A stretch of 64,000 nt of DNA from Candidatus Parcubacteria bacterium (GCA_023130975.1 JAGMAD010000006.1:23187-87186), one strand, 5' to 3'. Shown: positions 23,920 through 63,202, counted from the first letter of the stretch. Translations and numbers: made by a program. Notes: generated by a model from the letters alone, not told the origin.

Positions 23920-23961
23920 AAGAACCTGACTTCGTCAGAACCTTGTTTTTCGCTAACGCTC
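23920..23961 (+). repeat. family-2 element (dispersed copy)
   Basis: AAGAACCTGACTTCGTCAGAACCTTG..TTCGCTAACGCTC. Confidence 0.6.
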
Positions 23962-24003
23962 AAAATAAGAGGAAATAGCTTTAGAAAAAATAATCAACTA
24001 ATT

Positions 24004-24228
24004 ATGTTCTTCGTAGATGGCAAATTTAATATTACTCTGGTTTTACTTGGTATAATCTTAGCTTTTTATTTGTGGTATACTTTTGCTATTGTCTATCATT
24101 TAATCAGATTCGGAGTAGGAACCAAACCTAAAACCATCGCCTTAATTTTCTTTGTGGGCTCTGTTTTCTTATTTTCTCTGGCAATAATTATTTATACCCA
24201 AATTAATTGGGCAACTATTTTGCAATAA
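24004..24228 (+). CDS. small 2-TM membrane protein
   Basis: 74 aa from ATG 24004; the track N-terminal extension (23806-) crosses repeats and a terminator. Confidence 0.5.
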   Translation: MFFVDGKFNITLVLLGIILAFYLWYTFAIVYHLIRFGVGTKPKTIALIFFVGSVFLFSLAIIIYTQINWATILQ

Positions 24229-24236
24229 ATTATTTT

Positions 24237-24755
24237 ATGTCTATCTTTACTTCCTCAAAAAATAGTTTTGAAGGACAACTCCCGGGAGAAACCACAATTT
24301 TGTTAACCAGAAAGCATTGGCTTAATTTATTCGTTCCGCTGTTTATTAATCTGCTGCTGATTTTATTACCTTTTGTGGTTTATTTTATCATAAATTCCTT
24401 TAGCTGGTACGATAAGATTTCCTCTCTTTATTGGTTCCTGGCAACACTACTTCTGTTAATTTTATGGAATTTAGCTTTTTATAACATTATGATTTATGCT
24501 CTAAATACTGTTTTAGTAACTAACAAAAGAGTAATCGAAAATAAGCAAGAAGGTCTGTTTAAACACAGAATTAACGAATTAGAATTAGATAAGGTTCAGG
24601 ACATATCAATAAAGGTTTTCGGTCTTTTAGCAGAGTTGTTGAGTTTTGGAAATTTAGAGATTCAAAGCGCTGGAGCCAAAGTTAAGTTCTCTTTTACTCA
24701 ACTGCCTCATCCCCAAAAGATAAAAAATACTATTATGAAGTTAAAAATTAGTTGA
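24237..24755 (+). CDS. bacterial PH domain (bPH_2/YdbS-like) membrane protein
   Basis: 172 aa from ATG 24237; 2 TM then VLVTNKRVIENKQEGLFKHRINELELDKVQDISI. Confidence 0.6.
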   Translation: MSIFTSSKNSFEGQLPGETTILLTRKHWLNLFVPLFINLLLILLPFVVYFIINSFSWYDKISSLYWFLATLLLLILWNLAFYNIMIYALNTVLVTNKRVIENKQEGLFKHRINELELDKVQDISIKVFGLLAELLSFGNLEIQSAGAKVKFSFTQLPHPQKIKNTIMKLKIS

Positions 24756-24835
24756 ATCTCAGCAGAATTAAAAACTGATTATGAAAAAAAGCCCAAGAAT
24801 GGGCTTAATTTCATTTATTTGATTTACTGAATTTC

Positions 24836-25033
24836 TTAAAGGCGGGTTACGTTTGTTGCGTTAGGACCCTTTGCAGAATCGGTCTTATCGAAAGACACTC
24901 TATCACCTACTTTTAACTCTTCAAAGGTTACACCCTTAAGTTCGTTGCTGTGAAAGAATAAATCTTTCTCTTCACCATCAACGGTAATAAATCCAAATCC
25001 TTTACCCGTAAGGTTTTTAATTGTTCCTTCCAT
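24836..25033 (-). CDS. cold-shock domain protein (CspA family)
   Basis: 65 aa; KGFGFI RNP-1 and FFHSNE RNP-2-like motifs. Confidence 0.92.
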   Translation of the reverse strand: MEGTIKNLTGKGFGFITVDGEEKDLFFHSNELKGVTFEELKVGDRVSFDKTDSAKGPNATNVTRL

Positions 25034-25045
25034 GATTGTAATTTA

Positions 25046-25100
25046 CCCTATTAAATAATTCCGCCAAAGGCGAAATTGCCCCAAAGGGCATTTAACAGGG
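25046..25100 (-). promoter_or_regulatory. structured 5' UTR of the csp gene (outer helix enclosing two hairpins)
   Basis: Outer CCCTATTAAAT/ATTTAACAGGG; inner CCGCC-aaa-GGCG and TGCCC-caaa-GGGCA; ends 13 nt before the ATG. Confidence 0.5.
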
Positions 25101-25248
25101 TGAAGATTAATTAATTTTAGTTCCCTGAATAAACTCGACTAAATTTTGATTAAGGCAACTATCTATGAATAATATTAACATTTAAAAAATAATTAGTCAA
25201 CCAAAAAACCACCTTTCCGCCAACTGGCGGAGACGAGACGGTAAATTT

Positions 25249-25278
25249 ACTCCCCCAACTGGACGTTATTAGAACCTG
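25249..25278 (-). repeat. family-1 tRNA-like 3' element
   Basis: Minus reading CAGGTTCTAATAACGTCCAGTTGGGGGAGT after the stop of 25303..25527; a second partial box CCGCCAGTTGGCGGA lies at 25216-25232. Confidence 0.7.
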
Positions 25279-25302
25279 TTTGATGAAAATTTAGAAAAAA
25301 CT

Positions 25303-25527
25303 CTAAAAGAAAGCGTATAATACAGCCATTGCAAGCGTGATAAGTAGTGTTATGCCAATCCATGCTTTAGCGCCAGCCTCACGTATTCCGTATCCAACCC
25401 AAAGAAGTATTGGAATTAAATACAAAGGCACTACGTCAACTGGTTTGTGAACTACATTCTTAAAAAATATCACCAACAGCAATGGAAGAAAAAATGCAAC
25501 TATTAATATTTTTGTGTCATCTTTCAT
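25303..25527 (-). CDS. small 2-3 TM membrane protein
   Basis: 74 aa, hydrophobic; TATAAT plus AAAGGTCGGG box upstream. Confidence 0.55.
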   Translation of the reverse strand: MKDDTKILIVAFFLPLLLVIFFKNVVHKPVDVVPLYLIPILLWVGYGIREAGAKAWIGITLLITLAMAVLYAFF

Positions 25528-25586
25528 TTTTATTATCTTCTTTTTTAAATAGTTTAGACCCGACCTTTATCAAATTATACCAAATT

Positions 25587-25613
25587 AAAAACCTGAGACA
25601 AACAATTCTCAGG
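25587..25613 (-). terminator. intrinsic terminator CCTGAGA/TCTCAGG plus T-run
   Basis: Minus reading CCTGAGAattgtttgTCTCAGGTTTTT. Confidence 0.7.
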
Positions 25614-25713
25614 TCCTTGCTCCGCCAACACTAACATCAAAATCTTTAAGCAATCCTCTATAAAGATTTTCACTCCCGCATTTTAGACATTTTTCGTTTG
25701 TTATATTTCTACT

Positions 25714-61598: not shown

Positions 61599-61607
61599 AA
61601 ATTAAAA

Positions 61608-61631
61608 GGGACTAAAGCCGGACTTTAGTCC
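61608..61631 (+). terminator. hairpin GGACTAAAG/CTTTAGTCC after rnj (no T-run)
   Basis: 9-bp perfect stem; abuts the next promoter. Confidence 0.4.
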
Positions 61632-61660
61632 TTGACCCACTTATTGTAAAATGATATGAT
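61632..61660 (+). promoter_or_regulatory. TTGACC-N17-TATGAT promoter of rpsF-ssb-rpsR
   Basis: Read directly, 10 nt upstream of the rpsF ATG region. Confidence 0.5.
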
Positions 61661-61669
61661 TGTTTTACT

Positions 61670-62086
61670 ATGAAATTATATGAATTAACATATCTAATAG
61701 AGCCGGGAATTGATGAAAAGGAATTAGAGACATTATCTGAAAAAATAAAATCCTTCATTATAGAAAAAGGAGGAATTTTGGGGAAAGAAACTGCTGCTAT
61801 TAAAAAAAAATTGGGTTCTCAAATTAAAAAGAAGTCAGTGGCTTATCTTAAAAACCTGGATTTTCAATTAGAACCGGAAAAAATCAAGGAAATCAAAAAA
61901 GAAATTGAATCAGAAAAGAATATTCTCCGTTTTATTTTTCTTAGCAAGGCATTAGCAAGGACTAAACCATCAATAAAAACTTCTCCTAAAACTGGCCTCC
62001 AACCTCCTTTGGTTCAAAAAGAAGAAAAAGTAAAAAAAGTTGAGCTAAAGGAAATTGAGAAAAAACTTGAAGAAATATTAGAATAA
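61670..62086 (+). CDS. rpsF: 30S ribosomal protein S6 with Lys/Glu-rich C-terminal extension
   Basis: [10 protein letters not shown]..; conserved rpsF-ssb-rpsR order. Confidence 0.85.
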
Positions 62087-62087
62087 T

Positions 62088-62654
62088 ATGAATCTTAATA
62101 AAGTTTTTCTTATCGGTAATTTAACTTCTGACCCTGAATTAAGAACCACACCTTCAGGCCAATCTGTTTGTAATTTTCGCATGGCTACTAACCGTATTTG
62201 GAATGACAGAGATAGCGGACAGCAGCAGCAAAAAACAGAATACCATAGTATAGTAGCTTGGCGCAGATTAGCAGAAATTGCCTCCCAGTTTTTGAACAAG
62301 GGAAGTTTAGTCCTTATTGAAGGACGACTGGAAACAAGAAATTGGCAGGATCCTGCCGGCAACAAACGTTATCGGACGGAAATAATTGCTGAAAGAATGC
62401 AGTTAGGTCCCAAAGGTTTTTCTAAACAAGGATTTAAACCATCAGCTCCTGCTCCTTCTCCAGAAGAAGAGCAAAAACCTTCAGAAGCCCAAGAGGAAAT
62501 CCCAATTATAGAAGAAGATACTGGTCCGATAAATAAAGAAGAAAACAAAGATTCTTCTAATCAAAATCCTCAAGACCCTCAAGCGCAAGAGAAGAAAAAA
62601 ATAGTTGAGCCCCCGGAACCTGATGAGATAGATGTAAAGGAGATACCTTTTTAA
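62088..62654 (+). CDS. ssb: single-stranded DNA-binding protein
   Basis: 188 aa; OB fold [21 protein letters not shown]..; acidic tail ending DVKEIPF. Confidence 0.92.
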
Positions 62655-62698
62655 GTTAAAAGTTCAAAGTTAAAAGTTAAAGTTTTAAGTTAAAAGTT
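62655..62698. repeat. heptamer array GTTAAAA GTTCAAA GTTAAAA GTTAAA GTTTTAA GTTAAAA
   Basis: Read directly after the ssb stop; followed by a partly complementary AT-rich arm. Confidence 0.75.
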
Positions 62699-62764
62699 AT
62701 TGAAAAATTGCTTTTTCAATTTTTAACTTTTCACTTTTAATTTTTAACTTGAGCGTTAGCGAAC

Positions 62765-62962
62765 GTGGACTGTTACTTTTGTAGAAAAAATATAAAAGAA
62801 ATTGATTTTAAGGAGACAGAAGTACTCCGGAGATTTATTTCTGGCTTAGGCAAGATAAGACCTAGAAAAAAGACCGGATTATGTGCTTCTCACCAACGAA
62901 AACTAAGCCGGGCAGTTAAAAGAGCCCGTCATTTAGGATTACTCTCTGCTGTTGAAAAGTAG
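62765..62962 (+). CDS. rpsR: 30S ribosomal protein S18
   Basis: 65 aa; GTG start; CYFCRKNIKEIDFKETEVLRRFIS..GKIRPRKKTGLCASHQRKL. Confidence 0.88.
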   Translation: MDCYFCRKNIKEIDFKETEVLRRFISGLGKIRPRKKTGLCASHQRKLSRAVKRARHLGLLSAVEK

Positions 62963-63002
62963 ATATTAGATGTTGGATACTAGATGTTAGATATTAGATA
63001 TT
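62961..63002. repeat. heptamer array AGATATT AGATGTT GGATACT AGATGTT AGATATT AGATATT
   Basis: Read directly, starting within the rpsR stop codon. Confidence 0.8.
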
Positions 63003-63010
63003 AGTCAATT

Positions 63011-63042
63011 AAAAAAAATTGCGGCTCTGCCGCAATTTTTTG
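63011..63042 (+). terminator. rpsR operon terminator
   Basis: A8-TTGCGGC-tct-GCCGCAA-T6. Confidence 0.85.
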
Positions 63043-63064
63043 ATTAGGAAAGTTGAAACTTATT

Positions 63065-63202
63065 AAGAACCTGCTCACTTCGCTCGCAGAACCTTGATTC
63101 CTTCGGAATTAAGAACCTGCTCACTTCGCTCGCAGAACCTTGATTCCTTCGGAATTAAGAACCTGCTCACTTCGCTCGCAGAACCTTGATTCCTTCGGAA
63201 TT
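63065..63202 (+). repeat. three identical tandem 46-nt family-2 units
   Basis: AAGAACCTGCTCACTTCGCTCGCAGAACCTTGATTCCTTCGGAATT at 63065, 63111 and 63157. Confidence 0.95.

Follow-up and report, generated by a model that had tools for sequence, protein, structure and literature searches.

REP, BIME and REPIN sequences of enterobacteria and Pseudomonas are short extragenic palindromes with a short conserved motif beside the stem; they occur in many copies, mostly after genes, form arrays and show compensatory changes in their stems. Correia elements and miniature inverted-repeat transposable elements (MITEs) are small non-autonomous insertions at a TA-containing target, with outward promoter elements, effects on the expression of neighbouring genes and presence/absence polymorphism between relatives. 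BOX elements of Streptococcus pneumoniae are modular intergenic repeats with stable hairpins, in which a module of about 45 nt varies in tandem copy number. By the usual account, the genomes of Patescibacteria, the candidate phyla radiation (CPR), are streamlined, with few repeats and little mobile DNA. Here we analysed a 64,000-nt stretch of a Candidatus Parcubacteria genome (GCA_023130975.1, JAGMAD010000006.1:23187-87186; the whole stretch is called the window), which holds a 46-nt, two-hairpin repeat as a tandem array and as dispersed copies. This repeat is family 2 of two repeat families in the window and is called the element below. We read it, with a probability of roughly 65%, as a small, non-autonomous, strand-specific mobile hairpin element of the REP/PATE/MITE kind. 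Its design is unusual, and it is clade-wide but patchy, in genomes believed to hold almost no such DNA.

The element resembles REP/PATE/MITE-type repeats but departs from each of them in a defining trait. Insertion sequences of the IS200/IS605 family are defined by the absence of terminal inverted repeats, by end hairpins and by insertion 3' of a short specific sequence (PMC7290912), the latter a tetra- or pentanucleotide. Like their ends-only derivatives (PATEs), the element lacks terminal inverted repeats, carries hairpins close to both ends and inserts in one orientation 3' of a short sequence; it is also small, which favours single-stranded transposition, and its stem sequence is free as long as it is paired (PMC7290912). 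However, it measures 43-70 nt against about 270 nt for a PATE (PMC7290912), its left hairpin has one pentamer on both sides, its double TAA might be a target duplication, and its units stand in head-to-tail arrays. Moreover, no autonomous insertion sequence with the same ends was found, and the Y1_Tnp genes present have other cognate hairpins. The likeness to the REP/RAYT system lies in the palindrome with its motif, the placement, the arrays and the compensatory changes. REPs, however, come in inverted pairs or alternating orientation, whereas the arrays of the element are all direct, head to tail; REPs flank the gene of their RAYT transposase, whereas the Y1 gene found here has a different palindrome, ATCAGAGAACWGTTCTCTGAT, confined to that gene; and REP families are species-specific, whereas the linkers of the element are identical across about 63 species. 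With the Correia elements of Neisseria and other MITEs it shares small size, a TA-containing target, a promoter-like block and presence/absence between relatives, but MITEs have terminal inverted repeats and the element has none, is 2-3 times shorter and is strongly biased in orientation. BOX, compared by description and not by sequence, is likewise a tandem-variable modular hairpin repeat of about 45 nt, but it has three modules (A, B and C) and no defined TAA insertion site, and is limited to one genus. Finally, Rickettsia palindromic elements are hairpin repeats that can be translated, as is copy B described below, which adds 12 codons to a gene; those elements are 100-150 nt long and lie in frame inside genes, whereas ours touches only gene 3' ends and brings its own stops.

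The anatomy of the element was drawn from about 170 copies in the window and in other genomes. The consensus is TAA / GAACC / T-stem-loop-stem-A / GAACC / TTG / module 2 / TA(A). The left module thus consists of GAACC, a free-sequence hairpin closed by T...A and GAACC again, followed by an invariant TTG. Hairpin 1 starts 5 nt from the left end, and in the short variant hairpin 2 ends 0-3 nt from the right end. There are no terminal inverted repeats: (TAA)GAACCTG at the 5' end has no inverted match in the 3' end, whose reverse complement reads TTAATTC... or TTAATTTG....

Hairpin 1 occurred in 108 distinct sequences, 57% of which had at least four consecutive end pairs, compared with 1.9% of shuffles. 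Among the 29 distinct 13-nt versions, 95.2% of cells were paired against 75.6% in column shuffles (a level reached in 0 of 500), double-sided changes numbered 31 against 8.1, and slid registers were only 28-50% paired. Module 2 took three forms. The first is a covarying hairpin of 4-6 bp, with at least six different 5-bp stems on one frame (ATTCC/GGAAT, ATTAC/GTAAT, ATTTC/GAAAT, AATAC/GTATT, AATGC/GCATT and TTGCC/GGCAA). The second is a hairpin with the sub-module TC-GC-TTC-GC-TC, which is found in hairpin 1 too. The third, the long variant, is a sequence-conserved 33-nt block, ATTCGCTAAGGTATAAATATATAATCTTGAATT, reading TTGATT-N16-TATAAT-CTTGAAT; no compensatory change was seen in its potential stem, and its right-hand structure is weak. 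An initial annotation, made from the window sequence, had proposed that both helices change sequence and keep their pairing. This case became far stronger with the copies from other genomes, and the C-G to A-T swap it had pointed out in hairpin 2 (ATTCC/GGAAT against ATTAC/GTAAT) falls among the covarying stems. The triloops are mostly C-TNC-G, which is C-GNA-G on the opposite strand. Hairpins of the d(GCGAAGC) type are unusually stable in DNA, and this type of triloop hints at folding at the DNA level. When the copies of the window were folded singly, they did no better than shuffles (z = -0.2 to -1.7, not significant), and the case for structure is therefore a comparative one.

The copies of the element in the window are as follows.

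63064-63204, plus strand: array of three identical head-to-tail 46-nt units, between the convergent genes rpsR and recA.
59042-59095, plus strand: copy B, with the hairpin-1 region at 59050-59070 and hairpin 2, ATTAC-TTC-GTAAT, at 59079-59091.
59790-59836, plus strand: copy C, 42 nt past tRNA-Leu(CAG) and upstream of the RNase J gene.
50145 to 50077, minus strand: copy D, a long promoter-like variant whose TAA (50145-50143) is the htpX stop codon.
23919-23968, plus strand: copy E, a complete two-hairpin copy in the divergent spacer between an EncFtn-like gene (minus strand) and a bPH gene (plus strand).
62751-62762, minus strand: a solo 12-nt TCGCTAACGCTC sub-module (fragment), between ssb and rpsR.

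Each unit of the array reads TAA-GAACC-T[GCTCACTTCGCTCGC]A-GAACC-TTG-ATTCC-TTC-GGAAT, and the array terminates in TAG, not TAA. Tandem Repeats Finder placed it at 63062-63203 (period 46, 3.1 copies, 100% identity), and the direct reading of the sequence agreed, as the annotation of a perfect threefold tandem after rpsR had it. Copy B provides the final 12 codons and the TGA stop (59077-59079) of the SBP_bac_5 open reading frame (ORF; 57016-59079), also as annotated, and the GPI gene starts downstream of it at 59108. Hairpin 1 of copy C is weak (CTT/AAG around TCACTTTGTTC), and its hairpin 2 is ATTAC-TTC-GTAAT. Copy D holds the TCGCTAACGCTC module in hairpin 1, and its right part consists of TTGATT (50114-50109), a 16-nt spacer, CATAAT (50092-50087) and CTTGAATTAA. 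The gene that follows, bPH_2, begins at 50019. In copy E, hairpin 1 is GAC-TTC-GTC, closed by T-A, and hairpin 2 is TTGTTTT-TCGCTAACGCTC-AAAATAA. The annotated positions of the dispersed copies stood, with two changes of extent: copy D runs on to 50077 instead of ending at 50101, and copy E is complete and not partial. The fragment noted at 62751 is present, but it consists of the sub-module alone and has the opposite orientation. The 22-mer core was observed 5 times in the window against 0 expected, and looser searches of the window returned no additional degenerate copies.

Evidence for mobility came from comparing filled and empty sites. First, the metagenome contig L117, the closest relative, is syntenic with window positions 56365-62611 at 82-90% nucleotide identity and is without copies B and C. 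Its SBP gene departs from that of the window exactly at the first base of copy B, and its RNase J gene starts within about 15 nt of tRNA-Leu, with no copy C. Second, we collected 80 loci with RNase J orthologs (72-93% amino acid identity, 869 kb), the neighbourhood that has four element sites in the window. Only one element was present in them, and no alternative pentamer-flanked hairpin family took its place there. Third, a filled site in locus L174 reads GTC-TAA-GAACC...CTCAAAT-TAA-AAGCC-ATG, and five relatives are empty, with GTC-TAA-AAT-ATG. The RNase J stop codon used in L174 carries a different element in L115, which is another genome, with a different stem and a long-type module 2, and six relatives are empty there. 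In addition, L099 and the window made independent gains between tRNA-Leu and RNase J. Finally, two assemblies of the window's own population, with flanks 100% identical over 5.9 kb, have 2 and 3 units in the array, which could be true variation, in line with the copy-number variation suggested at the outset, or assembly collapse of a 138-nt repeat. Two short contigs end within the array. Close relatives thus lack the element at the orthologous positions; it is an insertion, and neither a conserved regulatory site nor a conserved signal of gene 3' ends, and the initial reading was changed accordingly.

Judged from its junctions, the element inserts in a fixed orientation directly 3' of a TAA that is preceded by A-rich sequence. 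The left flank of 129 first units is (A)AAA-TAA, of which the TAA was demanded by the search pattern itself; an inner unit follows ...GAAT-TAA, with which the unit before it ends. We examined the stop codons in 79 arrays with a sense ORF of at least 100 amino acids ending nearby. The TAA of the element is the upstream stop codon in 27 of the 79, and another 13 ORFs stop inside the element. With antisense copies, the gene stop was not seen to coincide with the right end of the element, which indicates an asymmetric target. By our own crude ORF calls, 57 copies between co-directional genes are sense and 14 antisense, and 8 lie in divergent and 7 in convergent spacers. The annotated rule that copies lie in sense orientation 3' of a gene holds for the array and copies B, C and D, which point the same way as the gene 5' of them, and in the wider set becomes a bias. 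Neighbouring genes in these genomes are often separated by only a few bases, and the TAA targets that can be tolerated are therefore very often stop codons. Strand-specific insertion at TAA would then lead to the bias toward sense orientation and gene 3' ends, to the use of the element's TAA as a stop and to start codons abutting or close behind the element, as in L174. The sense bias itself we attribute, by inference, to the predominance of stop codons among the TAA targets that are tolerated.

The right ends were TAA in 32 cases, TAT in 6 and TAG in 6. The flanking TAA would fit a TA/TAA duplication of the target as well as an element that itself ends in TTAA. Adjacent units with differing stems were found in L106, L007 and L022, which points to one insertion after another, each behind the TTAA with which a copy already in place ends; identical neighbouring units, as in the window, may have arisen by slippage. 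The right end of the element restores (A/T)TAA, so that later copies can land behind earlier ones, which together with slippage yields head-to-tail arrays of variable copy number.

The distribution of the element was determined by an exact scan for TAAGAACCT-N6-24-AGAACCTTGATT (a 21-base pattern) in 596 Gb, with one genome per species. The scan yielded at least 116 loci, compared with about 5 expected by chance by our own estimate. The matches listed came from about 63 species assemblies, nearly all of them Patescibacteria, and the carriers listed were Nealsonbacteria, Paceibacteria, Minisyncoccales, Gribaldobacteria and one member of Curtissbacteria. Two non-CPR matches, in Bacteroidota-type genomes, lay inside genes and had no hairpin, as chance hits should. 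The family is widespread yet patchy in Patescibacteria, chiefly in genomes of the Nealsonbacteria and Paceibacteria type. In some genomes the density is about one site per 10 kb, with none in close relatives. No match was found in 2.9 million viral contigs. Rfam gave no match at gathering score in the window and, at E <= 10 around the array, only junk below 21 bits. Literature searches by sequence strings and for CPR REP elements, structured-RNA surveys of Parcubacteria and CPR promoters or leaderless transcripts returned no description of the element.

How the element would move can be proposed by analogy. The pairing of the hairpins would be kept because the mobilising enzyme recognises a single-stranded hairpin together with its GAACC flanks. 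The best mechanistic analogue would be the HUH/Y1 "peel-and-paste" transposition of IS200/IS605, of the PATE derivatives and of REP/RAYT. DDE-type insertion with a TA/TAA duplication is a possible alternative; short target duplications typify DDE transposons, not HUH elements. The stems differ completely between dispersed copies of one genome and are nevertheless perfectly paired in most copies, and identical stem "alleles" recur in unrelated genomes, for which there are two speculative explanations. Either arm of the hairpin may serve as the template for its partner during transposition (re-templating), or the elements may form a metapopulation that spreads horizontally. The likeness of AACCTTG-ATT to the phiX174 origin AACTTG^ATA was considered as an indication of the element boundary and was rejected: the filled and empty sites place the junctions at TAA/GAACC and after TTAA, not at CTTG/A.

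To look for a mobilising enzyme, we clustered the 1167 ORFs of the element loci all against all. The clusters comprised Y1 and housekeeping families (FtsZ, FtsA, an ATPase that is GspE-like by sequence appearance, and ribosomal proteins), and no transposase family besides Y1 was enriched near the elements. Genes of the Y1_Tnp family (PF01797) are present in the window (4173-4859, minus strand) and in L007, L044, L049 and L105. Each is bracketed by its own, different palindrome; that of the window is perfect and occurs only at the gene (4153-4888). There were 5 Y1 genes in 851 kb of element-rich DNA and 0 in the 869 kb of RNase J loci, which as one syntenic region are an unfair control. Homologues of the window gene with 71-83% identity are very numerous in CPR contigs, in unrelated neighbourhoods and with the palindrome kept (1-4 copies). 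The IS200-like Y1 gene of the window with its palindrome looks like a conserved single-gene mobile or domesticated unit. As a candidate mobiliser the Y1 enzyme of the window was not supported, having its own palindrome and homologues on contigs without the element, and is probably not the enzyme sought. The element might instead be the substrate of a CPR-conserved enzyme that recognises GAACC, any hairpin and GAACC on single-stranded DNA and pastes it after TAA, although we regard this specific proposal, which is prompted by the stems that differ yet pair and by the recurring stem alleles, as rather improbable.

Several observations weigh against a mobile element. No mobilising enzyme was identified in the element loci or in the window; the contigs with Y1 homologues (about 70 kb, non-redundant) had 0 family-2 elements; and an autonomous tnpA copy of the Y1 type with the element's ends was not found in the 64 kb of this genome that were searched. 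Dispersed copies within one genome have quite different, unrelated stems, which is not what a simple, recent copy-and-paste burst predicts. TAA flanks the insert on both sides in the filled sites and could be a target duplication of 2-3 bp. The counts of G.T and C.A mismatches in the stems are about equal, so that this asymmetry, tried as an indicator of the folding strand, was uninformative. The gene contexts depend on the crude ORF calls, and the difference between 2 and 3 units depends on the absence of assembly collapse. Finally, the 80% sense bias and the conservation of the TATAAT block would also suit a function at the level of the host.

The last point leads to the rival that ranks second. 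It holds that the element is a host-selected RNA or transcription cassette at mRNA 3' ends, with its mobility secondary or due to recombination. The hairpins would be a stabiliser, a processing site, a non-canonical terminator or a protein site, GAACC would be a binding motif, and transcription of the following gene would begin anew from the TTGATT-N16-TATAAT block. The block resembles a sigma-70 type promoter, in which TTGACA-like and TATAAT-like hexamers stand 16-18 nt apart upstream of a gene. TATAAT is matched at 6 of 6 positions with a spacing of 15-18 nt in about 25 arrays of other genomes, and copy D was flagged as promoter-like (TTGATT-16-CATAAT). Long variants had a co-oriented downstream gene in 34 of 42 cases, with an ATG 0-18 nt past the element in 14 of these 34, and in 6 last-unit copies the ATG directly abuts the element. 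These motifs make the long variant a plausible carrier of an outward sigma-70 promoter close to consensus, and the 6 abutting copies could give leaderless or near-leaderless mRNAs. However, long variants did not lie upstream of co-oriented genes significantly more often than short ones (34/8 against 39/17, p = 0.25). Sense orientation in 80% of the copies between co-directional genes (57 against 14) would suit a cassette, but 20% are antisense, and there is no depletion in the divergent (8) or convergent (7) spacers. A single-stranded GAACC that is invariant on both sides of a covarying helix, linkers conserved across the roughly 63 species listed, and a UC/GC-UUC-GC/UC sub-module that recurs in both hairpin positions could likewise be explained by a role in RNA. 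As to termination, the window shows the following feature.

63012-63045, plus strand: intrinsic terminator of rpsR, outside the element (A-tract, GCGGC-TCT-GCCGC, T-tract), read directly from the sequence.

Since this canonical terminator precedes the array, the array is not needed for rpsR termination; it lies past the terminator and faces the 3' end of recA. Neither hairpin of the element is followed by a U-tract (AGAACCUUGAUU follows hairpin 1 and UAAG hairpin 2), and the terminator scan flagged neither. The cassette also lacks an Rfam match, and the hairpins of the window are thermodynamically unremarkable. Close relatives are without the element at the orthologous sites. We therefore consider a host-selected cassette unlikely, though it fares best among the rivals.

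For a mobile element, effects on host expression are likely as a secondary matter. Stop codons in several frames together with the promoter would make insertions in operons tolerable, and the promoter block could secondarily rewire the expression of the downstream gene. Under the rather improbable proposal of a CPR-conserved enzyme made above, the long variant would act as a portable stop-codon-plus-promoter cassette by which extremely reduced genomes could split or rewire operons, leaderless mRNAs included. A patchy element of 43-70 nt is also a marker of recent genome dynamics in CPR. It breaks short-read assemblies, as the two contigs ending inside the array illustrate, alters the C-termini of proteins and separates tightly coupled genes by hairpins and promoters close to consensus. 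With its fixed TAA junction and its hairpins of free sequence it offers a clean, testable substrate in the search for the responsible enzyme, and the family could join annotation pipelines and resources of the Rfam or ISfinder type, from which it is currently absent.

Two further rivals fared worse. CPR bacteria are thought to depend on DNA uptake, and GAACC or AGAACCT could be an uptake sequence, or another genome-wide word, that merely flanks terminator-like hairpins. AGAACCT is 2.5-fold over-represented in the window (25 observed against 9.8 expected, 0 of 100 shuffles), but it falls to background once the element and five family-1 copies are removed (6 left against the 9.8 expected). The word is not dispersed in coding sequence, always forms a direct pair that encloses a hairpin and has TAA and TTG as its fixed neighbours, and is missing from close relatives, all of which makes this explanation highly improbable. 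A TIGR-Tas or CRISPR-like guide-RNA array, suggested by the superficial dual-repeat layout in which the conserved segments TAAGAACCT and AGAACCTTGATT alternate with two variable "spacers", and by the fact that TIGR arrays are common in CPR (PMC12045711), was rejected as extremely improbable on account of its period (46 nt here and 41-66 nt elsewhere, not 36 nt), the identity of the three units in the window, variable parts that are self-complementary hairpins and not free spacers, the prevalence of singletons dispersed at gene ends, and neighbours (S18, SSB and RecA) that include no Nop-domain Tas or Cas protein.

The initial annotation had also noticed that the core of the element is the reverse complement of a string in the other repeat family of the window, and had taken this as a hint of one DNA-level recognition site for both families.

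20849, 22217, 23513, 25255, 32714 and 34930: copies of family 1, consensus GCTCCCCCAACTGGACGCTATTAGAACCTG.

As a string, the shared core does exist: it is TTAGAACCTG in family 1 and TAAGAACCTG in family 2. The common string extends to TTA(A)GAACCTG and has one orientation in the window, and we estimate its chance occurrence at a few percent. Family 1 was not found in the other loci of the element set, no protein that binds or cleaves the shared string was identified, and nothing links the two families to one protein. In the family-1 copy at 20849, a 40-nt hairpin is inserted ahead of TTAGAACCTG. The family-1 consensus has 12 consecutive bases (GCTCCCCCAACT) in common with the viral-strand origin of phiX174, GCTCCCCCAACTTG^ATATTAATAAC (NC_001422, nick at 4306), either by chance or as a possible Rep-type nick site.

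The genes next to the copies in the window were confirmed by Pfam as SBP_bac_5, GPI, RNase J, S6, SSB, S18, RecA, M48/HtpX and bPH_2, and the tRNA-Leu by ARAGORN, so that the names rpsR, SBP, htpX and tRNA-Leu given at the outset were right. At gathering score the Rfam tRNA model reported tRNA-Ser (49382-49465) but not tRNA-Leu(CAG) (59663-59748), which is an ARAGORN call. Between the array and recA lies an unannotated ORF of 30 codons (MSLNKKISTKTGTIVIVLAFVVAVSLILAY; 63204-63296, minus strand) whose stop abuts the end of the array and whose product resembles a small membrane peptide. There is no dnaA at the 54-kb strand switch of the window, and the GC skew of the window tracks gene orientation.

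Some other repeats of the window were recorded. Heptad micro-repeats lie in spacers at 62653-62750, 62960-63004 and 51612-51652. Seven copies of AAGTTAA opposite four of TTTTAAC form a long inverted repeat in the ssb-rpsR spacer, and runs of TAGATAT/TTAGATT lie directly after rpsR and also between the start of the LemA gene and the next minus-strand gene. A short repeat (CTACCCTACCCTAAAGGGCAGGGTATCCC...) at 23041-23078 and 21449-21486, and at 5584-5621 of contig L117, is 92-97% identical in non-orthologous places. A perfect 138-nt tandem duplication at 32901-33156 (1.9 copies, 100%) is in frame (46 codons) within the ORF at 32897-34267 (minus strand). Finally, Rfam matched a group I intron at 39205-39430 on the minus strand (RF00028, 84 bits, full length).

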